A DNA stretch of 32,000 bases from Psychrobium sp. nBUS_13 (GCF_051201665.1 NZ_CP179211.1:50060-82059); one strand, 5' to 3'. Shown: positions 1-18,502, counted from the first letter of the stretch. The notes: generated from the sequence alone by a model not told the origin. Program-made: numbers and translations.

Positions 1-2
1 CT

Positions 3-590
3 CTTACTCCTTTAAACGAAGAAGATGATAGTGCGTTAGCAGATGAACTAGGAGATAACCTTTGGGCTGAAATAGCTAAAGAAGCTTCTAAAATCTATTC
101 AGCATCTTGGTTTAACAACTCAAAACCCGTTACTAGAGTGTCACAAAAAATACGTCGTCCAATCAACCGTGTTGTAGATAAGATATTAGACCTTTCATTT
201 TTAGATGAGAGTTTAGTTACTGTTGCTACGTCAATCACGGATGTTATGCGTCAATTACCTGCTTCTGGATATATCGAAGGTAGAGAATTTGACAACTTAA
301 CAAAATGGATGTTTGTTATGAGTGATGAAAGTAAATTACGTTTACATGCTGAGAACTCTGCGAACGCAAATGCTTATTTAGATAGCGAAGATGGACAAAA
401 AGCTGTTTCACACGCTGAACAGTTCATTGATGCTTCTACTGAGCAATTTGGTAATGTTGATCAAGTCACCACGATTGATACTGAAGACGTTACACCTGAG
501 ATAGAAACTCAATTTGAGTCTCCTATTGAAGTCGTTCAACAGCCATCGACACTATCAACGACTAATGAATTATCATTTGGTAATTGGTAG
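3..590 (+). CDS. 3' part of a larger gene whose start lies left of the window; hypothetical protein with an acidic Thr/Glu-rich C-terminal tail
   Basis: The frame is open from base 3 to TAG 588-590; LTPLNEEDDSALADELGDNLWAEIAKE... precedes the GTG at 138 used by the ORF track, so that start is probably internal. No family recognised. Confidence 0.5.
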   Translation, partial: LTPLNEEDDSALADELGDNLWAEIAKEASKIYSASWFNNSKPVTRVSQKIRRPINRVVDKILDLSFLDESLVTVATSITDVMRQLPASGYIEGREFDNLTKWMFVMSDESKLRLHAENSANANAYLDSEDGQKAVSHAEQFIDASTEQFGNVDQVTTIDTEDVTPEIETQFESPIEVVQQPSTLSTTNELSFGNW

Positions 591-596
591 CTGCCC

Positions 597-640
597 TTAA
601 GGGATTATTCCTTAAGGGATGATCCCTTTTAATTTATTTT
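597..640 (+). terminator. Probable intrinsic terminator after the first gene
   Basis: AAGGGAT (599-605) pairs with ATCCCTT (622-628) and is followed by TTTTAATTTATTTT. TTAAGGGAT is also directly repeated (597-605, 612-620). Confidence 0.5.
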
Positions 641-654
641 AAATAGGTATCAAG

Positions 655-2277
655 ATGAAAAATGTACGTAACTCTAGAAAAGAACAAGAATTGTTAGCTA
701 AATTCTCTGTTCTAACCCGTCTTATGTCTAAACAATCTGACGTTAAGATAATTATCAGTGGGAACCAGCCTTACACGACAGGTGATTTAATTGTATTGCC
801 GTGTGGGGATTTTGAAGATGCAACATATTGTGAATTACTAGAAGGTGTAGTAGATCATGAAATAGGGCATATTGATGAATCTTGCTGGAATGTTCTAAAA
901 GACTTTGCTGGTTCCCCACTGTCTAAATCAATATTGAATATTATTGAAGATGTAAGAATGGAACGCTCACGTAGTCGTAAATATGCTGGCTCAAGAATCA
1001 ACTTTTATAAGATGATTAGTCACTTGTTTAAGCGTGGATGGTTTCAACCTGTAACGATAGAACATAGCGCTCCGCAATGCCTTACTTCTTATATTCTTTT
1101 TTCTGGTCGGTTCAAATATATGGATCAAGATCAGTTTGAAGAAAGAAGCATTGGTGCGAGAGAAGTGTTAGTTGAAAAGTTTGATGCAGATTTTGTGCAA
1201 GAACTTGATCTAATACTCACTCAAATACCCAAGTGTGAGGATACAAAAGGTGCTGGTGTAATAACGGAACAGATACTTCAATTACTTGATTTAGATGACC
1301 TTCAAGAAAGCGAATCTAAGAATAATACTCATAAACAAAGTACTAGCCCTAAAGGTGAAAATATTGAAACCAGTGTTCAAGAATGCCTTGGTGCAACTAA
1401 TGATGATGTATTAGAAGATCTGCATGAAGCTATAAAAACCGAACTTTCGCAAATCGTTAAGCAGTGTATCGCTGATGGAACTTTATCTTATAGTGAATGT
1501 GATAAGTACTCGATATCGAGACAAATCATTGAACAAGATATATCGTTCATCGACGTTGCTCAAGCAAAACGTAGAAGTGGCCAAGTTCGAAACACTTTAG
1601 CTAAACAATTACATTCACTTAATCGAAAATCTGTAACTCATTCGAGGCGTGGAAGTAACATTAATGCAGCTAAACTTGGTGGAATTAAAGCAGGGAATCT
1701 TTGTGTTTTTAAAAACGAAATGATAACTCGCTCGCCAAACACTGCTATTAGTATTCTTATAGATAGGTCTTATTCTATGGAAGAATTAATAACAGAAACC
1801 AATACAAGTTCGCTTGCATTGGCTTGTGCTTTTGAAAAACTTAAAGGGGTAAAATCAGAGGTTTTGTATTATCCATTTTATCAAAAGTATGAATGTGAGG
1901 AGCAAGGGACTATTTATACATTTAGTATCCATTGCGCTAAATCATTCGATGAAAAAACGTCGGCTGTGAAAAAGTACTTTAATGTCCAATCTGAAGGTGA
2001 CACACCAACAGGTCCAGCCATGCAAGAAGCATTACGCAATCTCGCCTTACGAAAAGAACCTAAAAAAATTCTTTTTGTTATTACAGATGGAGAAGCTAAT
2101 GATGAAGAGCACGTTAGAAAAGAAGTAGCAAATGCCCAGTTATTAGGTATCGATGTTGTCCCTATTGTTCTTAAAACTTGTGTTTCAGGTTTTGAGGAAG
2201 TAGGTACCACAAGAGTTGATGATATAAGTCAGCTCCATTCGGTTATCAAAGACGCTGTAAAATTAAAACTTCTTTAA
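655..2277 (+). CDS. HExxH metallopeptidase-like N-terminal region fused to a C-terminal von Willebrand factor A (VWA) domain; CobT-like / MoxR-partner type
   Basis: HEIGH at aa 68-72 (VVDHEIGHIDES). MIDAS-type DxSxS (LIDRSYSME), followed by GDTPTGPAM and ILFVITDGEAND, the usual VWA strand/loop pattern. Confidence 0.7.
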   Translation: MKNVRNSRKEQELLAKFSVLTRLMSKQSDVKIIISGNQPYTTGDLIVLPCGDFEDATYCELLEGVVDHEIGHIDESCWNVLKDFAGSPLSKSILNIIEDVRMERSRSRKYAGSRINFYKMISHLFKRGWFQPVTIEHSAPQCLTSYILFSGRFKYMDQDQFEERSIGAREVLVEKFDADFVQELDLILTQIPKCEDTKGAGVITEQILQLLDLDDLQESESKNNTHKQSTSPKGENIETSVQECLGATNDDVLEDLHEAIKTELSQIVKQCIADGTLSYSECDKYSISRQIIEQDISFIDVAQAKRRSGQVRNTLAKQLHSLNRKSVTHSRRGSNINAAKLGGIKAGNLCVFKNEMITRSPNTAISILIDRSYSMEELITETNTSSLALACAFEKLKGVKSEVLYYPFYQKYECEEQGTIYTFSIHCAKSFDEKTSAVKKYFNVQSEGDTPTGPAMQEALRNLALRKEPKKILFVITDGEANDEEHVRKEVANAQLLGIDVVPIVLKTCVSGFEEVGTTRVDDISQLHSVIKDAVKLKLL

Positions 2278-2296
2278 CTTAATTAATAACTACTAA

Positions 2297-2363
2297 CCCA
2301 ACCGGGAGAATATCGCTCCCATTGGGGCATATCTCTCCCAAATTTAACATCTCTGGAGGAGAT
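2297..2363 (+). promoter_or_regulatory. Structured leader IG1 (hairpin A:A', decoy B, anti-SD B', SD) upstream of ORF 2367
   Basis: A CCCAACCGGGAG 2297-2308 / A' CTCCCATTGGGG 2316-2327; B GGGAGAATAT 2304-2313; B' ATATCTCTCCC 2329-2339; SD GGAGGAGAT 2355-2363. Confidence 0.55.
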
Positions 2364-2366
2364 ACT

Positions 2367-2675
2367 ATGACAACCATAATAACTAAACCCATAACTTTCG
2401 ATAGTCCCAAGCTTAGAAAAATCACTTTGTCTGATTATTACAAAGCACTTCTAAGTGCTGATTGGTTCTATCACTATAGCGATTGTTATGAAACTCGTCG
2501 TAGGGCAGTGAAAGCGATAGCCTTACTTGAAAAAATAGGTACAAGTCATCCCATAGCAAATAAAATGTGGCGTGATTGTAAAGAATACGTAGTTAATCTA
2601 TGGTCTGATCCAGATACTAAAGTATTTGATTGTCCAAAGATTAATGCGGAATTTTCGTATCTAGCAATTCACTAA
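2367..2675 (+). CDS. Small hypothetical protein (102 aa)
   Basis: ATG at 2367 sits 4 nt after GGAGGAGATACT. The ORF-track start at 2322 is a TTG inside the leader hairpin and lacks an SD. No family recognised. Confidence 0.6.
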   Translation: MTTIITKPITFDSPKLRKITLSDYYKALLSADWFYHYSDCYETRRRAVKAIALLEKIGTSHPIANKMWRDCKEYVVNLWSDPDTKVFDCPKINAEFSYLAIH

Positions 2676-2676
2676 A

Positions 2677-2744
2677 CCCATAAGGGATACACTCCTTTAT
2701 GGGACTGTATCCCTCTGAAATTTAACATCTCTTGGAGGAGATAC
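2677..2744 (+). promoter_or_regulatory. Structured leader IG2
   Basis: A CCCATAAGG 2677-2685 / A' CCTTTATGGG 2694-2703; B AGGGATACA 2683-2691; B' TGTATCCCT 2706-2714 (9/9 complementary to B); SD GGAGGAGATAC 2734-2744. Confidence 0.6.
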
Positions 2745-2745
2745 T

Positions 2746-3078
2746 ATGTGTTCAGCCCTAACAAAACCAAAGCAATTTTCAGAACCAGTTCGTATTAAGC
2801 AACCTAGCATCTTTGATGTTCTCGATATAGTAAACCCACTTGATAAAGAATGGGATTACATGTGGAGTAAACTTGAAAGTCACCGTATTAATTTGGGATT
2901 AAGCGATAAGCTTAGCGCCTGTAATTTCGGTGAAGTTTGGCAGTATTTATATACTGAAGAACGTAGCTATTTTGTTTTTTGGAAACGTCAGTGTCATGTT
3001 TTTAGACATCGATTTCATCCAAATACGAATGGTCATGAAACATTGTACATACCGGCAAGTAAGAGCTATTTAGCTTAA
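2746..3078 (+). CDS. Small hypothetical protein (110 aa), paralogue of 3160-3477
   Basis: Strong SD. Shares NFGEVWQYLYTEE...FRHRFHP...IPASKSY with the next ORF. Confidence 0.65.
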   Translation: MCSALTKPKQFSEPVRIKQPSIFDVLDIVNPLDKEWDYMWSKLESHRINLGLSDKLSACNFGEVWQYLYTEERSYFVFWKRQCHVFRHRFHPNTNGHETLYIPASKSYLA

Positions 3079-3097
3079 ACCTGCATCTAACTACTAA

Positions 3098-3158
3098 CCC
3101 ATAAGGGGGAACACCCTTTACGGGCTGTATCCCTCTAAATTTTTCTCGGAGGAGATAC
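3098..3158 (+). promoter_or_regulatory. Structured leader IG3
   Basis: A CCCATAAGGG 3098-3107 / A' CCCTTTACGGG 3114-3124; B' TGTATCCCT 3126-3134; SD GGAGGAGATAC 3148-3158. B:B' pairing is weak here. Confidence 0.5.
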
Positions 3159-3159
3159 C

Positions 3160-3477
3160 ATGCAAACCCTAAACCCTGCAACACCTGAATATTTAAACTC
3201 TTTATTCACAATTTCTAGTGAGAGTAACGAGTGGAAATATTTGGAGAACGAACTTTCTAAAATTGAGCTAAACAAAGGTATTAACCAACCGCTTGTAGCG
3301 CGAAATTATGGAGAAGTTTGGCAGTATTTATATAGTGAAGAAGCAAGATTTACTGTCTTTGGTAAAAAATCGTTTAACCACATTTTTCGCCATAGAAACC
3401 ACCCTAAAACTCATAAGTTGGAATATATTGAAATGCCAGCAAGTGATAGTTTTTGCGTAACCAAATCTCAATCTTAA
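3160..3477 (+). CDS. Small hypothetical protein (105 aa), paralogue of 2746-3078
   Basis: NYGEVWQYLYSEE...FRHRNHP...MPASDSF; strong SD. Confidence 0.65.
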   Translation: MQTLNPATPEYLNSLFTISSESNEWKYLENELSKIELNKGINQPLVARNYGEVWQYLYSEEARFTVFGKKSFNHIFRHRNHPKTHKLEYIEMPASDSFCVTKSQS

Positions 3478-3483
3478 CTAACT

Positions 3484-3549
3484 CTAATAGGAGACTAAAT
3501 TCGCCTATTAGGGCATTTAGTCTCCCTAATTTGTACTCTTGGAGGGGAC
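3484..3549 (+). promoter_or_regulatory. Structured leader IG4
   Basis: A CTAATAGG 3484-3491 / A' CCTATTAG 3504-3511 (8/8); B GGAGACTAAAT 3490-3500; B' ATTTAGTCTCC 3515-3525 (11/11 with B); SD GGAGGGGAC 3541-3549. Confidence 0.6.
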
Positions 3550-3552
3550 AAA

Positions 3553-3759
3553 ATGAAAAACACTACTACTAACATCAACTCGCTTTTAAACGAATTATTT
3601 CATCTGTATTCAAATACCTTAACTGAGTTTCTTTCAGAGATGGAAATCGTTAATACGTTTAAAAGAATTAAAAACTTATATCAACAATTAAAAGATCAGG
3701 TCACTAATAACCCCAAGTTTGAGGAAATTGGTGAGTTTGTCTTTATTACTGATATTTAA
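3553..3759 (+). CDS. Small hypothetical protein (68 aa)
   Basis: SD GGAGGGGAC lies 3 nt before the ATG. About 30% ungapped identity to the N-terminal half of the next ORF. Confidence 0.55.
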   Translation: MKNTTTNINSLLNELFHLYSNTLTEFLSEMEIVNTFKRIKNLYQQLKDQVTNNPKFEEIGEFVFITDI

Positions 3760-3819
3760 ATCAACCTTAAAGGGAATGCACTTTTGCACCCCTTTATTAC
3801 TCTCTTGGAGGAGATAATT

Positions 3820-4140
3820 ATGTCATCAATAACCAAACAGTTTGACGAAATACAACAGCTTTATTTTGTTGGCCTAGAGCAATGCTCAACAGCTGGAGAA
3901 AAAGTTAAAGTGTTTCAGAAAATACAAAGGTTACACGTTTGCTTAAAACGCAAAATTAGCAACAACAAAGCATTTAACGAGATTACTCAATATTTGCAAG
4001 GCAAGACTAGCTGTATGAACTTGTGTGGAGGGGTATGTGAAAACATTTGTCACCTTAACGCTCAAGAGTTTAATCAATATATCAAACGTAACAATTTAAC
4101 CGGTAAGTTGATTATGACGTCCATGCAATCTTTTTCGTAG
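3820..4140 (+). CDS. Small hypothetical protein (106 aa), Cys-rich C-terminal half
   Basis: ATG at 3820 follows GGAGGAGATAATT. The ORF-track start at 3784 is a TTG inside the upstream hairpin. Confidence 0.55.
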   Translation: MSSITKQFDEIQQLYFVGLEQCSTAGEKVKVFQKIQRLHVCLKRKISNNKAFNEITQYLQGKTSCMNLCGGVCENICHLNAQEFNQYIKRNNLTGKLIMTSMQSFS

Positions 4141-4277
4141 TTCAATTGGAGCAAATTATGAAAACCGATAAAATTACTAAAGTATTAGCTCTTGTCTCAC
4201 AAAATGGTGGATGGGAGTGCGTGTTGTGGTTGAATTAGCCGGACACTTCAATAAAGGATTATAATCCCGTTATTGAG

Positions 4278-4571
4278 GTGAATATGACTAAACGAACAAA
4301 TAAACATTATCCAGTAGAGTTTAAGCAAGAAGCTGTGGCGTTAGTGATTGAACAAGGCTACACGATCGTGCAAGCCGCTGCATCACTGGGTATTACAGAT
4401 AAAATACTTTATAACTGGGTCGCTAAGCATAAGAAACAAGCGCAAGGCGATACGTTATCTAATGATGAACGGGCTGAGTTAATTCAGCTAAGAAAAGAGA
4501 ATAAACGCTTACAAATGGAGCGTGAGATCCTAAAAAAGGCTTCAGCCTTCTTCGCGAAAGAAATGAAGTAA
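4278..4571 (+). CDS. IS3-family transposase OrfA (HTH)
   Basis: MTKRTNKHYPVEFKQEAVALV...NWVAKHKK, typical IS3/IS911 OrfA. Slippery A AAA AAG at 4532-4538 near its end. Confidence 0.9.
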   Translation: MNMTKRTNKHYPVEFKQEAVALVIEQGYTIVQAAASLGITDKILYNWVAKHKKQAQGDTLSNDERAELIQLRKENKRLQMEREILKKASAFFAKEMK

Positions 4572-4627
4572 GATATTCATTTATCAGAGAACTTGATGCT
4601 AAATATCCAGTATCAGTTGCCTGTAAA

Positions 4628-5440
4628 GTGATGAAAGTTAGTTCATCTGCCTATTACGTCTGGTTAAAAAGGCCTGGTGAATTAATTAGCGCTCAAACAT
4701 TAAGGTTGTATCGACGAGCTAAGGCTTTATTCAAAGCGAGTCGCAATAGCCTAGGTAGTCGAGAGCTTGCTAAAGCGCTACGTAAAGAAGGCTTTGAAAT
4801 AACCCGTTATCGTACGATTAAACTGATGGCTCGGCTTAAACTTGTTGTCACTCAGCGTATCGCCTACAAGGTGACCACTAAGCGAAAACATAGTGATGCT
4901 GTAGCAGATAACTTATTAAATATGAACTTTAATCCAGTAGCACCAAATCAAGTGTGGGCTGGTGATGTGAGTTACTTAAAAACTGGTGAAGGTTGGCTAT
5001 ATTTAGCGATTGTCATGGACTTGTATTCGCGGCGTATCGTTGGCTGGTACATATCAAAACGTATGACTCGTGACTTAGTCGAAAAGGCTTTGATAAAAGC
5101 TCATAACTTGCGTAAGCCACCAAAAGGCGTGGTGTTCCATAGCGATCGAGGCTCTCAATATACGAGCGCTGGCTTTAGGAACTTACTGGATCGTCTTGGG
5201 TGTCGAGCTAGTATGGGGGATGTTGGAGCGTGCTGGGATAATGCCGTTGTCGAGCGGTTCTTTGGTAGTTTAAAACACGATTGGTTGTTTAAGGTGCCGC
5301 AGCCAACCCGTAAACATATGCGAGACGATGTTGCTAGGTACATGAAATATTATAATGTTGAGCGACTGCATTCAGCTAATGCTGATCAGTCGCCCAATGA
5401 ATTTGAACATTCCTTTAGGAAAGTGTCCGGTTGGACTTGA
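4628..5440 (+). CDS. IS3-family transposase OrfB (DDE), expressed as an OrfAB fusion by -1 frameshift
   Basis: The -1 frame is open from the slippery site (KKGFSLLRERNEVRYSFIRELDAKYPVSVACKVMKVSSSAYY...). DDE region WAGDVSYL...HSDRGSQYTS...NAVVERFF. Confidence 0.9.
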   Translation: MMKVSSSAYYVWLKRPGELISAQTLRLYRRAKALFKASRNSLGSRELAKALRKEGFEITRYRTIKLMARLKLVVTQRIAYKVTTKRKHSDAVADNLLNMNFNPVAPNQVWAGDVSYLKTGEGWLYLAIVMDLYSRRIVGWYISKRMTRDLVEKALIKAHNLRKPPKGVVFHSDRGSQYTSAGFRNLLDRLGCRASMGDVGACWDNAVVERFFGSLKHDWLFKVPQPTRKHMRDDVARYMKYYNVERLHSANADQSPNEFEHSFRKVSGWT

Positions 5441-6524
5441 CCAGAACAGCGTTTATTCTAAATATTCTGGATTGATGAACGCAATTAAGCATTACCCTAA
5501 GCAAGTTTCCTGTCCTTTTTCTCATCAAGGTAAGACTAAATTTCGTCTTTACCCTGATTGGAATGAGACAGGTGGCGGTTATCACGAAGATTATCTCTCT
5601 TTACCGGGTGGAATCGATGTTATAGCTTTAATGGAAAATTGCACTAAAGGTGAAGCCCTAAATATCATTATTGATATTTGTGGTGGAAAATTAGAGAGCA
5701 TTTCTAAAAAAATCATACAAAAAGTATCAACTAAAACTACTGGCATTTCTAGTAAAGAAAAACAAGATCGTCGCGCTAAACTTTGCAAGATTCAATCTAA
5801 TGCAAAGTCTGCATCTGCTTCATTACCGGTTCACGTGTATTTGAGGGGGAGAGGTCTAAAAGGTGATATGTCAAAACTACCAAAAGCTTTAGGTTATGCT
5901 AAAGAATTATGGTGGGGAGATGGTGAATCAAAGCCTAGAAAAGCTTGCGGTATGCTTGGTCTATTAACAGATGTTAATAATAAACCAGTAAGCATACATA
6001 GAACGTTTCTGAACCCTAGTCACTTTGGGAAACTAGAAGTTAGTACTCCAAAGATGCTAATGAAAGCTCCTATTGGGATTAAAGGTTGTTCGATTAAGTT
6101 AGATCAACCAAAGTCTTTTATGGGAGAGGTTGTCATTGGCTTAGCGGAAGGTTTGGAAACGTGTCTTGCTGTTAGAGAAGCTGTTAGCTTTCCAATGTGG
6201 TCAACTATTAGCGCAACGCTCATGAAAGGAGTTCAAATACCTAAACATGTAACTTGTGTGTTCATTTTTGCAGATAAAGACCGTAAAGGTGTTTATCCAT
6301 CAAAAGGTGAAGCTGGCCAGATTGCTGCAAACGAATTAGCCGAAAGGTTAAGAAGTGAGGGAAAGAAAGTCTATATACTTTTACCTGATGGAGATATTCC
6401 TGATAGAAAAAATAGTATTGATTGGGATGATGTTTATGTTCAACATGGTCCTGAAGCCTTTCCTTGTCTTAACGCAGAACTCTTAGACACTGGATTTACT
6501 AAAGATTAGCTCTATTAATCTTGA

Positions 6525-6571
6525 CCCGTATTTATTGAATGCTTTGGCATTCGATAATGCGGGTTTTTTTT
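6525..6571 (+). terminator. Rho-independent terminator after the primase-like gene
   Basis: Long imperfect stem CCCGTATTTATTGAATGC-tttg-GCATTCGATAATGCGGG followed by T8. Confidence 0.8.
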
Positions 6572-7030
6572 GCCTTAAATTTGAGTTTTTAAACTCTGAA
6601 TAAGACAAGTTTGTGTTAATTTTTATCACATTGACAGAAATAGAGTTTAATGGATACTCACTGGATACATATTTTACGAGAATTAGATAACAAATGCAGA
6701 ATAATGGAAGCGCGATTACTCATTCGGCAATAGATACTATTGAACACATACTAGAAAGTATGTTCATAGAAAGTGAACTACCCAGCGACATCGAAGTATA
6801 TAGTAAAAACCGTGTCTATTTGCGTGTGAGTGAATGAAAGCCTCGTTTTATAGGGCTTGGTAGTCACCACTATAATATACACACTATGTACAATGGTGTG
6901 TATATTTATTTTGTAATTGTCGTCCGACAAAATATTTATCAGTTTGGCCGTAGATCTAACTTGCCAGGCTAGCGCCGTCACCTTGAAGTTGACACCCGCG
7001 ACGTAGACAGGTTAATGTCAGTTAAGAGCG

Positions 7031-7048
7031 ATAAGCGGAAGTTGACAT
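7031..7048. repeat. Left copy of an 18-bp inverted repeat bracketing the acdS-acdR module
   Basis: The reverse complement of ATAAGCGGAAGTTGACAT is ATGTCAACTTCCGCTTAT, versus ATGTTAACTTCCGCTTTT at 8735-8752 (15/18). GAAGTTGACA also occurs at 6985-6994. Confidence 0.6.
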
Positions 7049-7080: not shown

Positions 7081-8124
7081 TTAGCCATTTCTATAGGTGT
7101 AGCTATAACCATTAATTGCAGGTGCACCGCCTAAATGTGCATATAGCACTTTTGAGCCTTCAGGGATCAATCCTTTCTTTACCAAGTCAATCATACCTTG
7201 CATCGATTTACCTTCATAAACAGGATCTGTGATCATCGCTTCTGTCTGTGCTGCTAGTCGAATAGCTTCGTTGGTTTCATTACTTGGAACGCCGTAAGCT
7301 GGATAAGCATAATCAGGATTGATGTTTACATCTTCCTCTGTGATTTCTTGACCTAGCTCAATTAATTCAGCGGCATTTTTTGCAATCTCTGTAACCTGAG
7401 CTCTCGTTTTCTCCACAGTACCTGAAGCATCAATACCAATGACTTTATCTGCTCTACCATCTGCTTTAAAGCCCACAATCATACCTGCTTGAGTTGAGCC
7501 AGTTACAACACATACCACGATATAATCAAACTTAAATCCTAGCTCTTTTTCTTGTTCTCGAACTTCTTCAGCAAAGGCAATGTAGCCTAATGCGCCATAT
7601 TTATGAACCGAACCGCCAGCAGGGATTCCATAAGGTTTTCCACCTTCGTCTTTAACTGCCTGTATTGCTTCTTCATAGCTGCTGCGTATCCCAATATCAA
7701 AGCCATCATCAACCATGCGACTATCGGCTCCCATTAATCTGGTCATTAAAATATTGCCAACACGATCATAAACAGCATCTTCATGAGGAACCCAGCTTTC
7801 TTGCACTAATCGACACTTCATACCTAATTTTGCTGCAGTTGCCGCTACCATTCTTGTATGATTAGATTGTACGCCACCAATAGATACAAGTGTGTCGGCA
7901 CCTGAAGCAATCGCATCAGGTACAATATATTCTAATTTCCTTAGTTTATTCCCGCCCATAGCAAGACCTGAATTACAGTCTTCACGCTTGGCATATATTT
8001 CAACTTTACCGCCAAGTGCTTCTGTTAATCTAGGTAAGTGCTCTATAGGTGTTTTACCAAAAGTTAGCGGATACCTTTCAAAGTTTTTCAATAAATTATG
8101 CTTTTTCAATTTTTTCTCCATCAC
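7081..8124 (-). CDS. acdS: 1-aminocyclopropane-1-carboxylate (ACC) deaminase, PLP-dependent
   Basis: Near full-length resemblance to Pseudomonas AcdS as I recall it: [82 protein letters not shown]. Confidence 0.85.
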
Positions 8125-8273
8125 ATAAAACGAGTAAACAATGAAGAAAATATTATCAAAACAAGAATGGAAGGTGCTTTCTATTATTTGACTTTATTTA
8201 CCTATATAATTGGAATAGATAATAAATATGACATTAAATAGTCATTACTAAGAAAATTATGAAAGGATGTTTC

Positions 8274-8977: not shown

Positions 8978-10365
8978 TTACTTTTTTAAAAGCTTAGCGA
9001 GGTAACTATTGCGCTTGTGAGAGTTGCTACATGTTTCTGTAATGACCATTAAATCATCAGAGCTTCCCACTATATGGATTTCAGCCTCGGCTCTTGTGAT
9101 TGCCGTATATAACCACGATCTATCAACGATCTTGCCTTTCTGTAGAGCGATTATGACACTAGGAAATTGCGAACCTTGAGCTTTGTGTAGGGTTATTGCA
9201 TAACCCAACTCCATGCAATCGAGCACAGATTGCGTGACCTCAACCATATCACCAGTATCCAGCGTTACTTGACCATAGCCTTCACCCGAAGACTCAATAC
9301 TGGTTAGTGTGCCTAGAGAGCCGTTTTGAATGCCTTTGTCGTAGTGGTTTTGCGTGAATAGAATCGCATCATTCAATCTGAGGTTTTGAAAGAATCTCTC
9401 ACCGTGCATTTCAAACTCAAGCCTATCTCCATTAAGGTTGACAGCCTCTTGTGTTAGTTTATTAATTTCAGCAACAAGTGCTTTGGTTGGAGCCATAACA
9501 CGACTGTTCTCAGGCGATTGCTGATACAGTTCACGACACACTTGGGCGATATTTGTTTTTTTCGTTTCGTGGAAGTGAATAGCTCCCGTACTTAACTTCT
9601 CTGGCACGATTCCACTGTTGATAAGCTTTGAGTATTCGGGAATTCCCGTTGAGCCTTCCTGACGTTTAACGATATCTAGCATGGTATTGGTGATAGCTTT
9701 TGACTGAACGATATCAGCAAGTACCTTACCGCAACCTATGGGCGGCAACTGGTCTGGGTCGCCAGTAAATATAATGCGAACCGATGGATGAATATGGTTG
9801 ACCAAGCGATACATGGTTGGCAAGTCAATCATACTGGCTTCATCAATCACCAGAAGATGTTTTGGCTGCTCTGACGATGGCTCTATCGGCTCATCACGAA
9901 ACTGCTTGGCGATGGTTGAGGTGATAAAACCAATTGACTCATGCAAGCGCATAGCGGCTCTACCACTCAACGCTACAGCATGTATTTCAAATCCCATTTG
10001 ATGGTAGGCTCTAAGTGCGGTTCTAAGCACCGTCGTTTTACCAGTACCAGCCCCGCCCGTGATACAACTCACCGCGTTATCTAAACACGTTGTTACTGCT
10101 TCGATTTGTTTCTTGGTCAGCTCGTATGGCAATTCACCAACCGCAGAGCAATATGCAGAATTTGCATATTCGTCATAAAGGTTGTTTTGGCTAGCTAATG
10201 CTTTAAGCCGTTTAGCAACGACATTTTCCATCAATAACTGTGCGGTTGGATGGTAAGTGCCACTGTCAGGGTTTAGGATGTATTGTGCTTTTTCATGACC
10301 TGCCTTGAACGCTGCCGCAACTAGCTCTTTGTCCTTGAGTAGTTTGGTTAAATAGGGTCGCAAGG
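8978..10365 (-). pseudogene. RecD2-like SF1 helicase, C-terminal fragment (split by IS21-family element)
   Basis: Walker A GGAGTGKTT, motif II VIDEASMID, GDPDQLPPIG, AITLHKAQGSQFP, YTAITRA. The first ~20 codons of the ORF-track call (MIHRWVNFGSMLVGHFCTVGD) are read out of the IS end. Confidence 0.85.
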
Positions 10366-10453
10366 TGTCACCAACGGTGCAAAAATGACCCACTAACATC
10401 GATCCAAAATTGACCCACCGATGTATCATTTATTTATTTTTAGGTGATACGGT

Positions 10454-12249
<1,796 letters not shown>

Positions 12250-12318
12250 CTGGGTCAGTTTTCAATCGATGAATTACTGAAAAAGTGGGTCAATTTTAAA
12301 CCGTTGTTGACAGCAAGG

Positions 12319-13012
12319 CCGCTTGGTTTGTATACGTATGGCCTTTATCAATTTCTTTTCTGATAGCCGTTTCTAGTGCTGCGCTTAGCCTCTTGTGGTC
12401 ACAATCTGTGACCACAAGTTTGAAGTCGCAATTTGCGACCACAAGATCGACTTGTTCAAACGATATCCCGAAACCGATCAGCACATAGGGATTTTGCTTG
12501 ATCGCTTCAATCGACTCTTCACCGTGATGTTTCAGTAAGCGCTGCTGCACACCTGCTGGTATCTTATGTTCGGTCATCCAGTTGCAGTAGGCCAGATTTT
12601 TATATTTAGCATAGCCTTCAAACAACGCATTGATAGAATCTTCACTCAGGACGCTTCTAAGCTTTTCTCTCGATTCAGGAGTATCTTTTCTAACTATCGA
12701 GTGGAGATCTTTACCTAATAGCTCCCATAGCGCTCTAGCTTTACTTTCTCCAATACCTTTAAAGTCAGCTTCTCTTGCGATAAAGCGAATCAGTTGCTCG
12801 CCCGTTTCTGGAAGACTACATTCGATATGCTCCGGTGATTCATAGGTGTGCTGCTGCATCACGAAGTCACCCGTTTCCATTTCTTCTATTATGCGTGAGC
12901 CTTTAACCGACCAGTGTTGACCGAGTGCGGGTTGAACGGGGATTGAATCAGGGTGCGCTTTGATGGTGACGTAATACTTGCCGCTATTGGTTTTATAGGA
13001 GATTTAAATCAT
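12319..13012 (-). pseudogene. RecD2-like helicase, N-terminal fragment, with an in-frame TAA at codon 3
   Basis: Joining 12319 to 10365 restores ...HTYTNQAALRPYLTKLLKD... in frame. HhH-like FKGIGESKARALWELLG. The frame stays open upstream of the ORF-track start (12880) back to ATG ATT TAA (13012-13004), with no other canonical start between. Confidence 0.75.
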
Positions 13013-13279: not shown

Positions 13280-13984
13280 TTAAGAATTCATTTCAAGCAA
13301 ATTCAAGTTATTAGTAAACTCATCCTCGAATGCACCGTCAACGATAGATACAAGTGTTTTCCAATGTCGTCTAATTAACGTTTTCTTTCTTAATTCGTCT
13401 ACGAACGCTGAATGCCAAAATGAGTGTGGATTGGTTTTGCAACTTGTTTCAATCTCCATAACCTCCTCTGGAGACATAGTTGTGGTTACAACTGCACCAT
13501 CAACCAATTCAGTCGTACAGTATCCACCAGCCATTGCTCCTCTCATGTTGGTAGATAGACTTTGAGTGCTATGTGTAACTCGGTTGTTAATGCCGTTGAA
13601 CTGAAATGTATCGTTTGAATATATGATATCTGCAGTTGTAATTTGTATATAGGGATTTAAGCTACCAAGCTTTAGGTATCCCTTATAGCCAATATAGAAT
13701 AAAGCTCGAAAACCGTTAGTTGGGTCAAACTGGGGAATAACGAATGCAAGCTGCTTATCAGGACAAATAGTTAATCCAAATTTGGCTATATTCAAGAAAG
13801 CTGATGCAATCATACCAGGAAAGCAGACTTCATTTGCGCTTGTGCTATCAATTAGATTCATTAAATATTGACGCTCTTCGTCATAATCAATTAGACCTTG
13901 ATACTTCTCTGCGTTAGTTCTGAATTCTTTTTCAACATTAGATAGTTCTTTGTTTAATTGTGTATAAAAATTTAAACTACTCAT
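13280..13984 (-). CDS. recT: RecT-family single-strand annealing protein
   Basis: FYIGYKGYLKLG..., DTFQF, and W....F.DELRKKTLIRRHWKTL parallel the RecT blocks IIGYRGMIDLA, DEFSF and W...EMAKKTAIRRLFKYLP (from memory). Confidence 0.75.
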   Translation of the reverse strand: MSSLNFYTQLNKELSNVEKEFRTNAEKYQGLIDYDEERQYLMNLIDSTSANEVCFPGMIASAFLNIAKFGLTICPDKQLAFVIPQFDPTNGFRALFYIGYKGYLKLGSLNPYIQITTADIIYSNDTFQFNGINNRVTHSTQSLSTNMRGAMAGGYCTTELVDGAVVTTTMSPEEVMEIETSCKTNPHSFWHSAFVDELRKKTLIRRHWKTLVSIVDGAFEDEFTNNLNLLEMNS

Positions 13985-17821: not shown

Positions 17822-18502
17822 TTATGTTCCACTTTTGAAGTCTGATACAACGTTAAAAATTTCGTCATGTTCAAGGCGTTCTTTAATTTTATCTGGCGAA
17901 TCACTTCTAGTACCTTTCTTAGAAATCCAGCCATTTATAAATGTGTGTTCAACAATTTTCTGTAGTAATTTTTGATCGCCGTAACTCATTCTAGATTGTA
18001 AAAGAGTCAATTGCCTTAAAATTGAAGAAGTAGGGCGATCGCCAAATTCAATAAATTCACATTCATTATTCGCATCAAAAAGAGCTTGTAACGTATCCTC
18101 CTCGCGTCTAACTGGAGGTGATGTTAACCACAAAATAGTGTCAGTGAAAGAGCTATCATATTCATTCAAACCCAAGTTTCTCTGAACTCTTTGTAGTTGT
18201 TCAAGTGCTGGCTTTTCAATATTTATGGTTGCTAAGCTCTTGTTTTTCTTGTACTTAAATGCTCTGAATGCACCATTCAAGCTTTTGTAACTTTCTGGTT
18301 TCATTGATGACTTAAGTTCTAAACTAGCTTCTTTATATGTTAGCTTTGTCAGATAATCAAAACGTAAGTCTTTATCTAAGAGGTGAGCAGGCGCCTTGTT
18401 ATCAACAAAATTTGAAGGGTTCATTCTCTTATCAAATGCAGGGATAGTTATATAATCCTGCCAGTGTTGCTCATTATCTTGTGTCATTTCGTTAGTTGTC
18501 AC
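17822..18502 (-). CDS. Hypothetical protein (226 aa)
   Basis: Long ORF with a plausible sigma70 promoter upstream. The GTG start lies inside motif copy 3; the alternative ATG is at 18487. No family recognised. Confidence 0.55.
   Translation of the reverse strand: MTTNEMTQDNEQHWQDYITIPAFDKRMNPSNFVDNKAPAHLLDKDLRFDYLTKLTYKEASLELKSSMKPESYKSLNGAFRAFKYKKNKSLATINIEKPALEQLQRVQRNLGLNEYDSSFTDTILWLTSPPVRREEDTLQALFDANNECEFIEFGDRPTSSILRQLTLLQSRMSYGDQKLLQKIVEHTFINGWISKKGTRSDSPDKIKERLEHDEIFNVVSDFKSGT
18490..18502 (-). repeat. Ter-like / operator-like motif, copy 3 (inverted)
   Basis: The + strand reads CGTTAGTTGTCAC, the reverse complement of GTGACAACTAACG. Confidence 0.6.

Follow-up and report, generated by a model that had tools for sequence, protein, structure and literature searches.

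Covarying leaders of a plasmid gene cluster: a candidate family of two-state RNA locks on translation initiation

In translational attenuation of the ermC/cat type four leader segments are arranged such that pairings 1:2 and 3:4 hide the Shine-Dalgarno (SD) sequence, while pairing 2:3 frees it once segment 1 is occupied. Here we analyse a leader with the same four-segment, mutually exclusive pairing logic, which occurs in the gaps (IG1-IG5) before five small open reading frames (ORFs; 2367-4140) in a 32,000-nt stretch of DNA from Psychrobium sp. nBUS_13 (NZ_CP179211.1:50060-82059; "the window" denotes this full stretch). Its parts are a hairpin P1 (A:A'), a segment B within P1, a following segment B' and the SD. 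B' pairs either with the SD region and spacer of the translation initiation region (TIR), which gives helix P2 beside P1, or with B. Compared to the ermC/cat type, which precedes a single gene, the leaders lack a leader peptide and a stalling site and are repeated before about 20 genes. They were confirmed, and generalised, as a large and widespread family that was previously undescribed at the family level. We propose that each leader acts as a cis-acting two-state RNA lock on the TIR of the following gene, with P1 as the gate, and put the probability of this reading at about 0.5; the 30S subunit with protein S1 is the preferred, though more tentative, opener.

Other described systems share single features with the leaders. 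At repZ of IncI-alpha and IncB plasmids a pseudoknot coexists with a hairpin, in a system that needs translation of the leader ORF repY and an antisense RNA. Both repZ and the present leaders are found in plasmids, and in both an upstream hairpin has a loop that can pair with a sequence in the structure closing the ribosome-binding site (RBS). In our case, however, loop pairing and P1 exclude each other and a leader ORF is absent. Motifs before the starts of many small genes of a mobile element are known as SAS/ESAS from cluster K mycobacteriophages and as PeSL cassettes from T4-type phages. Like the leaders they are repeated just upstream of starts, have upstream inverted repeats and are suggested to undergo modular shuffling, but hosts and sequences are different, and PeSL contains a promoter whereas none was seen in IG1-IG5. 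To our knowledge, a three-way covariation between an anti-SD segment, an SD mimic and the TIR has been described neither for SAS/ESAS nor for PeSL.

Delayed folding, i.e. metastable control, is known from the MS2 maturation gene and from hok. In these cases, and reportedly in aapA3 (PMC6733600), the ground state hides the SD and an alternative anti-SD hairpin could keep it open transiently, as in the leaders. Ribosome standby, as reported for tisB (PMC6690012, PMC7708055) and MS2 coat (PMC5934652), combines a stably closed RBS with an upstream single-stranded stretch for possible pre-binding of 30S/S1. The leaders have the corresponding predicted feature, an accessible G-free and A-rich flank upstream of a stably closed RBS. 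Compared to tisB, a standby function is suggested here by the G-free flank only, the distance to the RBS is about 55 nt, and the exchange between B and B' is without counterpart.

A literature search with subscription journals mostly outside its reach gave no account of the family, the B element or the covariation; the nearest work was Roy et al. 2020 (PMC7498323). There, vcrx089-093 of IncC plasmids are named the host-defence-evasion (hde) operon, with anti-restriction genes and Ssb/Bet/Exo, which lets IncC plasmids survive restriction and CRISPR when they enter a new host. The supplement contains a single predicted RBS-sequestering structure upstream of vcrx089 of IncC pVCR94, in the same gene cluster as the leaders (hde operon and downstream genes). 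The paper gives this one instance and describes no family, B element or covariation; conserved IncC intergenic repeats with palindromes (rptI-IV) are viewed as DNA substrates that Bet/Exo use for single-strand-annealing repair (PMC7498323). Some rpt repeats may include leaders, since near-identical leader copies of the IncC plasmid pAR060302 sit inside longer repeats. An earlier sequence-only reading of the stretch had not recognised the element as a described riboregulator. This agrees with Rfam 15, which at its gathering score had no match in the window or in six related loci (radC and STAXI motifs included). Permissive searches (E <= 10 for window positions 2200-4200, E <= 5 for the IncC cluster) returned scattered chance matches, none of them at leader positions.

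Selected pairings in the leaders

The minimum-free-energy fold of the IG1-IG4 RNAs consists of P1 and an adjacent SD-sequestering P2 with one bulge (-24 to -28 kcal/mol). The z-scores against dinucleotide shuffles are -3.2, -4.7, -3.7 and -5.0. All leaders of the window lie on the plus strand. In IG2 (2670-2748) P1 is formed by 2677-2687 and 2693-2703, B (AGGGATACA) spans 2683-2691 and B' (TGTATCCCT) 2706-2714. P2 joins 2707-2718 with 2732-2744, the SD lies at 2734-2744 and the ATG at 2746-2748 (fold -28.4 kcal/mol, z -4.66; E 2.8e-19 in the covariance model described below). A covarying variant is found in IG4 (3475-3555; z -5.04, E 7.8e-6). Here P1 pairs 3482-3491 with 3504-3513, B (GGAGACTAAAT, 3490-3500) matches B' (ATTTAGTCTCC, 3515-3525) at 11/11 positions, and P2 (3514-3529 with 3538-3555) includes the AUG in addition to the SD (GGAGGGGAC, 3541-3549). 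The leader of IG1 (2290-2369; z -3.15, E 2.3e-9) starts with the G-free flank at 2290-2296, followed by P1 (2297-2326) with B (GGGAGAATAT, 2304-2313), B' (ATATCTCTCCC, 2329-2339), the SD (GGAGGAGAT, 2355-2363) and the ATG (2367-2369).

The remaining two gaps deviate to different degrees. IG3 (3091-3162; z -3.68, E 7.7e-21) has P1 at 3098-3124, a weaker B at about 3103-3114, B' at 3126-3135, the SD at 3148-3158 and the ATG at 3160-3162. The sequence-only reading had stated that IG3 keeps A:A' and B':SD with weak B:B' pairing; the first part holds, while B:B' is weaker than elsewhere yet still amounts to -12.5 kcal/mol. IG5 (3758-3822; z -1.8, E 1.4e-5) indeed retains only the hairpin and the SD: P1 (3768-3796) contains an inner hairpin, the anti-SD segment is absent, the SD lies at 3807-3817 and the ATG at 3820-3822, and opening the start site costs just 4.5 kcal/mol. 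The coordinates and sequences given earlier were all correct, as was the placement of the hairpin 1-19 nt after the upstream stop codon, for which we measured 19, 1, 19, 4 and 8 nt in IG1-IG5. Promoter-like or terminator-like sites, -35/-10 boxes included, were not found in IG1-IG5, such that the array is most simply one transcript.

Inspection by eye showed the layout in plasmids of Pseudoalteromonas with VWA proteins of only about 35% identity. MAFFT by itself misaligned the 3' half of the element. The covariance model was therefore built from a seed of 7 copies with a hand-set structure that encodes P1 and P2 only, leaving out B:B'. It was run at a cut-off of E <= 1e-3 over 236 kb of related MOBH plasmid clusters from eleven sources and gave 74 matches, 73 of them on the gene strand. 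In the 32-kb window it detected no copies beyond IG1-IG5 and a weak match at 587-657.

Compensatory variation was assessed on the 74 aligned leaders. Among the cells of this alignment 86% are standard-paired, and 19 of the 20 pairs have changed on both sides. Such both-side changes occur in 261 cells compared to 86 ± 8.5 in shuffles. The covariation score of 0.478 contrasts with 0.18 for shuffled alignments (0 of 500 reach it) and with 0.07-0.10 when the partners are slid by 1-3 columns; since the alignment was fitted to the model, it is biased towards the structure, but the margin over the controls is still large. B:B' lies outside the model and partly in a loop that cannot be aligned, and was therefore tested by duplex energies on 92 copies of less than 75% identity. 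Each B' region was paired with the 5' arm and loop of its own P1 and then with the same region of the other 91 copies. B' binds its own B with -13.1 kcal/mol, compared to -7.9 kcal/mol for the B of other copies, and the own partner ranks among the top 5 of 92 in 57% of cases (5% expected, p 4e-41). The result for the TIR is similar (-12.8 versus -8.2 kcal/mol; 49% in the top 5 of 92, p 4e-32). An example is the copy at position 7045 of the Shewanella pSx1 locus (L010; locus coordinates are numbered within loci), with B GGCGCAUUUAU, B' AUAAGUGCGCC and start region GGACGCACUUAUG. The three-way relation between B, B' and TIR is thus real and copy-specific, and it works through pairing and not through identity. 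Together, covariation and copy-specific pairing bear out the earlier proposal that A:A', B, B' and SD form a selected structure with compensatory variation, in which B' pairs with either B or the SD region.

B had also been taken for a decoy copy of the SD. B and the start region both bind B', partly by G:U pairs. A literal copy B is not: the exact words shared by B and its own start region are 4.36 nt long, compared to 3.80 nt between unrelated copies. This barely longer match results from the many G:U pairs, which make up 14% of B:B', 12% of B':TIR and 6% of P1.

The G:U pairs also bear on the strand on which the structure acts. As single-stranded DNA (ssDNA) the window copies fold on both strands (z -1.7 to -5.9). 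Because of this the window alone cannot settle the strand, but the family does: the sense strand is more stable than the reverse complement in 72 of 92 copies (p 2e-8), which is also true helix by helix. Given the G:U pairs and the better folding of the sense strand, the selected structure is assigned to sense-strand RNA. Furthermore, the element invariably ends at the start codon and includes the SD. An action of the hairpins as ssDNA upon conjugative entry had been considered; they would then serve for priming or as an ssDNA promoter. The folding of the window copies as ssDNA fits this idea, and the cluster contains ssb, a toprim gene and anti-defence genes. We nevertheless regard it as very improbable, given the family-wide preference for the sense strand, the G:U (in DNA G:T) pairs that reach 12-14% in the pairings of B', the fixed end at the start codon, the lack of -35/-10 boxes in IG1-IG5, and the distance of at least 55 kb between the cluster and oriT/mobI in IncC. 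An Frpo-type ssDNA promoter in particular was rejected on the sense-strand preference, the lack of a promoter-like site in IG1-IG5 and hairpins of only about 10 bp each. Template switching at quasipalindromes as the source of the covariation is unlikely given 12-14% G:U pairs.

A two-state gate and its possible openers

P1 has about 10 bp with a mean stability of -14.5 kcal/mol, and is clamped by CCC:GGG at the base and by GGG:CCC close to the top. B:B' comprises on average 9.9 bp, of which 5.6 use nucleotides of the P1 stem, and B' begins a median of 1 nt after P1. B:B' and P1 are therefore mutually exclusive, in agreement with the suggested competition between B and A:A'. On the same numbers, i.e. 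the shared stem nucleotides and a median 1-nt linker next to a 10-bp stem, a pseudoknot that coexists with P1 in the manner of repZ was rejected as sterically implausible. The energies of B:B' and B':TIR differ by only -0.26 ± 4.5 kcal/mol (B:B' stronger in 50 of 92 copies; rho 0.39, p 1e-4). As B' binds B and the TIR equally well, it would be P1 that decides between the closed state (P1 and P2) and the open state (B:B'). In the energy models the stability of P1 tips the balance to the closed state, such that P1 is the predicted gate.

This gate design is well supported. Opening the TIR costs on average 9.3 kcal/mol, and 64 of 92 copies switch to B:B' as their best fold when the TIR is held open. 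If the first 2 nt of P1 are masked, the opening cost drops to about 5.8 kcal/mol, and masking 2-6 nt saves 3-4 kcal/mol. For nested folding paths, to which all barrier estimates refer, the barriers are about 12 kcal/mol from open to closed and about 20 kcal/mol from closed to open. In the predicted open state the 3' arm (CCC-N4-GGG) folds on itself. The pairing of the SD with the 16S rRNA tail is strong (mean -8.4 kcal/mol).

According to the lock that we prefer, P1 would stand beside P2 in a closed ground state, with B' covering the SD and the gene-specific spacer, often up to the AUG. Upon opening, B' would shift to B, i.e. to the upper 5' arm and loop of P1, such that P1 dissolves and the TIR becomes single-stranded. 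Whatever keeps the 5' base of P1 unpaired would allow B to capture B' and thus prevent it from snapping back onto the TIR. The preferred opener would be a 30S subunit with protein S1 docking on the conserved single-stranded flank that abuts P1 and could serve as a standby site: G is almost absent from the seven positions 5' of P1, the flank is A-rich, and AA precedes the CCC in about 75-80% of copies (75/92 and 69/92). By analogy to known standby sites, opening of the lock by 30S/S1 docking at this flank is a tentative proposal, which we hold to be less likely than not.

Several points weigh against such a lock. In 28 of 92 copies the open-state fold retains P1, and masking the base of P1 leaves an opening cost of about 5-5.8 kcal/mol instead of zero. 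P1 should fold before B' is transcribed, and the barrier from P1 to B:B' is about 17 kcal/mol for nested paths. For these reasons the open state needs an active opener. IG5 and some further copies are without B'. The standby idea derives from flank composition and from analogy, and all energies come from nearest-neighbour models and not from experiments.

One candidate for such an opener is the upstream ribosome. The sequence-only reading had suggested a coupling relay. In such a relay a ribosome terminating on the upstream gene would unwind P1 at its base and let B capture B', which opens the TIR of the following gene, such that a gene is translated only if its upstream neighbour is. P1 starts 0-30 nt past the stop codon in the arrays, the gain from masking its first 2-6 nt is what such melting would exploit, and IG2 (1 nt) and IG4 (4 nt) lie within reach of a terminating ribosome. 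However, among 60 leaders for which the distance between stop codon and P1 was taken from annotated gene ends, the stop codon is at most 7 nt from P1 in only 13. Distances above 12 nt are found in 37 leaders and distances above 40 nt in 12. B:B' is equally strong irrespective of the distance, with -13.3, -12.5, -13.5 and -14.7 kcal/mol for the individual distance classes. Leaders are also found in 5' untranslated regions, behind a terminator-like hairpin and about 300 nt away from the preceding gene, as well as before the first gene of the IncC cluster. As a general mechanism the relay thus does not hold up and we consider it unlikely; within the preferred lock a terminating 70S ribosome could still assist in the minority of leaders with a stop codon at most 7 nt from P1.

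Alternatively, the RNA might open itself as a kinetic timer: nascent B:B' would form before the TIR is made, and the RNA would relax over minutes to P1 and P2, which would limit translation to a burst on fresh transcripts. This would be independent of the upstream stop position. If the TIR is left out, 64 of 92 copies fold best as B:B' (-22.0 versus -15.2 kcal/mol for P1). The best folds of growing prefixes, as seen for IG2, run from P1 over B:B' to P1 and P2, and a barrier of about 12 kcal/mol from open to closed implies lifetimes of tens of seconds to minutes. The difficulty lies in the first step. P1 is complete before B' exits the polymerase, so that, compared to the delayed-folding systems, the alternative hairpin has to compete with the earlier-formed P1 across the 17 kcal/mol barrier. 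A bypass by way of a loop pseudoknot is unlikely on steric grounds, given a median 1-nt linker across a 10-bp stem. A purely kinetic route is thus doubtful, and we hold the timer to be quite unlikely.

A third possibility is a common trans-acting factor (a protein of plasmid or host origin, an RNase or a small RNA) that sets all locks via the AA-CCC base of P1 or the CCCU core of the anti-SD segment. C is near-invariant at P1 positions 1 and 2 (87/92 each) with AA before them, while the remainder of the element covaries freely; in addition, the open state requires an opener, and the element is restricted to one co-regulated cluster. The conservation of the CCC/GGG clamps can, however, be explained from within the element, because the upper GGG must resemble the SD and its partner must therefore be CCC. 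No RNA-binding domain is evident among the annotated or scanned cluster proteins, and a candidate small RNA was not found. We consider a trans factor as sole explanation to be rather unlikely.

For the cluster as a whole, the lock suggests that some 20-25 cistrons, those of the host-defence-evasion operon included, are each translated from a standardised, strongly gated start. It is conceivable, though speculative, that they form a set of per-cistron strand-exchange latches that a single common input, either 30S/S1 standby or a plasmid or host factor at the AA-CCC base of P1, unlocks all together. If so, one input would gate the translation of the cluster in IncC, IncHI2, pAQU-like and related MOBH plasmids, possibly such that the genes are expressed only at the time when the plasmid arrives in a new host. 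A structured gate shared by almost all starts of the cluster would mean that plasmid establishment is controlled at a further level that has gone unrecognised; IncC and IncHI2 plasmids are among the main vehicles of multidrug resistance. For SD-sequestering two-state leaders the family is unusual in three respects: it is repeated before about 20 cistrons of a single cluster, its anti-SD segment has a second, matched partner, and it contains neither an aptamer nor a leader peptide. A large and richly covarying cis-regulatory RNA family of this kind poses the question of its opener. Its approximately 100 natural orthogonal lock variants could find use in RNA engineering.

Further known classes of elements were compared with the leaders and rejected. 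A leader peptide is excluded, since just 18 of 92 copies have an AUG in A', lacking any consistency of frame or stop, and the flank has no start codon. Intrinsic terminators or attenuators do not apply in general, as a run of at least 5 U follows B' in 24 of 92 copies and none was flagged in IG1-IG5, only in the copy at 599-628. By inspection, the sequence after GGG is too variable (GGGCGCA, GGGUAC and others) for CsrA-type GGA sites, and an element that contains the SD and ends at the start codon is not an integron attC site, a REP or a MITE. A thermosensor was dismissed by reasoning: the closed state has about 10 bp more than the open state, which places the crossover far above physiological temperature.

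Distribution in plasmid clusters

Leaders are found in Pseudoalteromonas, Rheinheimera, Colwellia, Ferrimonas, Photobacterium, Vibrio, Shewanella, Aeromonas (pAsa4b), Pseudomonas and E. coli (IncC, IncHI2). Plasmids that bear them also include pTUMSAT-OK2, pW7G and pSx1, and they occur in marine genomes, too. In the whole IncC plasmid pAR060302 (NC_012692, locus L011; 166.5 kb) all 19 gene-strand matches fall at record positions 82,999-109,679, i.e. in a 27-kb cluster that follows traN and reaches just beyond the toprim gene, with zero gene-strand matches in the tra, rep, par and resistance regions. Within the cluster a separate leader copy precedes nearly all non-overlapping genes, among them ssb, bet, exo, DUF3150, VWA and radC. 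The IncC leaders of ssb, bet and exo lie at L011 6776-6845, 7387-7470 and 8451-8522. The type of SD depends on the lineage (GGAGGAGAUAC in the window and Pseudoalteromonas, AGGAGAGAG in Rheinheimera, GAGGAUC in Ferrimonas and AAGGGGAAAC in Colwellia); the architecture remains constant despite this change.

The distribution also bears on a reading without any switch, in which the leaders would be constitutive insulators or stabilisers that give each cistron a standard local fold, block Rho in the gaps of 60-90 nt and protect mRNA ends, or would provide DNA-level homologies for Bet/Exo annealing and cassette shuffling. IncC intergenic repeats do serve Bet/Exo repair, as reported in the work cited above (PMC7498323). 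pAR060302 contains near-identical leader copies 4.8 and 8.7 kb apart (families D3 and D5) within longer repeats, different leaders are found on orthologous genes, and IG1-IG5 are without promoters or terminators. This reading leaves unexplained, however, why B' matches two partners of equal strength. It also fails to account for most copies, which are too diverged for good recombination, and the G:U-rich pairing indicates selection on RNA. We judge it improbable and retain the two-state lock.

The covariance model could help to locate missed small genes and to correct the annotation of start codons. Judged by the position of its leader (8078-8150 of NZ_CP032092, locus L001), radC starts at the ATG at 8148 and not at the annotated 8115, which falls inside the leader. 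Leaders also end at the ATG of unannotated small ORFs, one of 30 aa in pAR060302 (MEIAIIALCIPAGW..., hydrophobic; L011 4214-4373) and one of 39 aa in pSx1 (L010 11981-12174).

Individual lineages show additional features. In Rheinheimera (locus L004; 9924-10000, 1132-1217 and 12037-12123) an extra UUCG-type hairpin (GCCUUCGGGC) lies inside the P2 loop directly 5' of the SD AGGAGAGAG. In front of the toprim gene of the Pseudoalteromonas plasmids lies a different leader, likewise conserved, in which a long hairpin (GAGGCGACCACCUAAAGCGCC...GGACGCUUUAGGGUCGUCUUGAGG) extends to the SD (L001 8890-8994; 8385-8482 of the Pseudoalteromonas locus L002). The start-region core GGAGAUAUACA, seen at L002 4359-4436 and in other copies, appears to match the ribosome-binding site of phage T7 gene 10.

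Gene context and minor observations

Positions 1-6600 of the window are the terminal part of a gene cluster that is conserved and runs in one direction on a large plasmid. A DUF3150 gene that is cut by the window edge (138-590) is followed by a CobT-like VWA gene (655-2277). The latter is preceded by the weak match mentioned above, a degenerate leader at 587-657 (+; E 0.09). It consists of P1 at 594-618, B at 599-608, B' at 619-628, a weak SD (AGG, 644-646) and the ATG at 655, with -12.0 kcal/mol for B:B' and -7.2 kcal/mol for B' with the start region. Its B:B' hairpin (599-628) scored as terminator-like.

The array proper (2367-4140) encodes five small ORFs of no recognised family: 102 aa (2367-2675), 110 aa (2746-3078), 105 aa (3160-3477), 68 aa (after IG4) and 106 aa (to 4140). 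They had zero matches in Pfam, PHROG and NCBIfam. The second and third ORF (2746-3078 and 3160-3477) are paralogues with the common motif GEVWQYLY(T/S)EE...F(R)HR.HP. The array had no near-identity match in plasmids and no distant-identity match in phages; a 101-nt query with IG2 gave a single weak plasmid match in a distant-identity search.

At the next start site after the array (4141-4161, +) a GGAG precedes the ATG at 4159 with no leader and no match to the covariance model. This ATG is the apparent start of a toprim/DUF7146 gene, which is split by an IS3-family insertion at 4241-5431 and resumes at 5432-6509. The insertion has inverted repeats (CCGGACACTT... at 4241 and ...AAGTGTCCGG ending at 5431) and encodes orfA (4278-4571) and orfB (4628-5440); a listed ORF start at 5355 lies within it. 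The remaining window holds genes for plasmid functions, namely ParA, a Tus-like Ter protein and RecT with a PDDEXK nuclease, as well as two copies of IS66 and a RecD-like helicase gene into which IS21 has inserted. The helicase gene (RecD/TraI-like, minus strand) is found at 8978-10429 with its HHH_RecD2 part at 12296-12880, and the interrupting IS21 comprises istA (10454-11479) and istB (11476-12249).

Homologues of the VWA protein occur in 2,740 PLSDB plasmids, mostly conjugative ones. The eight plasmids that were examined are all MOBH, except for pSx1 (MOBP) and a P. spongiae plasmid that is untyped. The order of genes, from ssb over a CobS-like AAA ATPase, DUF3150, VWA and variable small genes to toprim, is conserved in Pseudoalteromonas plasmids, V. 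cholerae pW7G, Shewanella pSx1, IncC pAR060302 and an IncHI2 plasmid.

A second intergenic repeat family of the IncC cluster (...TTCTCTTCGGAGAGCGAAAAGTGCGATAGCTGGTCGCCAAAAACAAACAGCA...) recurs every 4-5 kb in its longer gaps (L011 3735, 4744-4817, 9579-9652, 13411-13484, 17825-17898 and 21642). It is sometimes joined to a leader as an exact repeat of 121 nt and may correspond to rptI of Roy et al. 2020. A third IncC motif, CCCAAAATGGACAGTTACAGCGTTTT, is present in 3 copies and could be an activator box.

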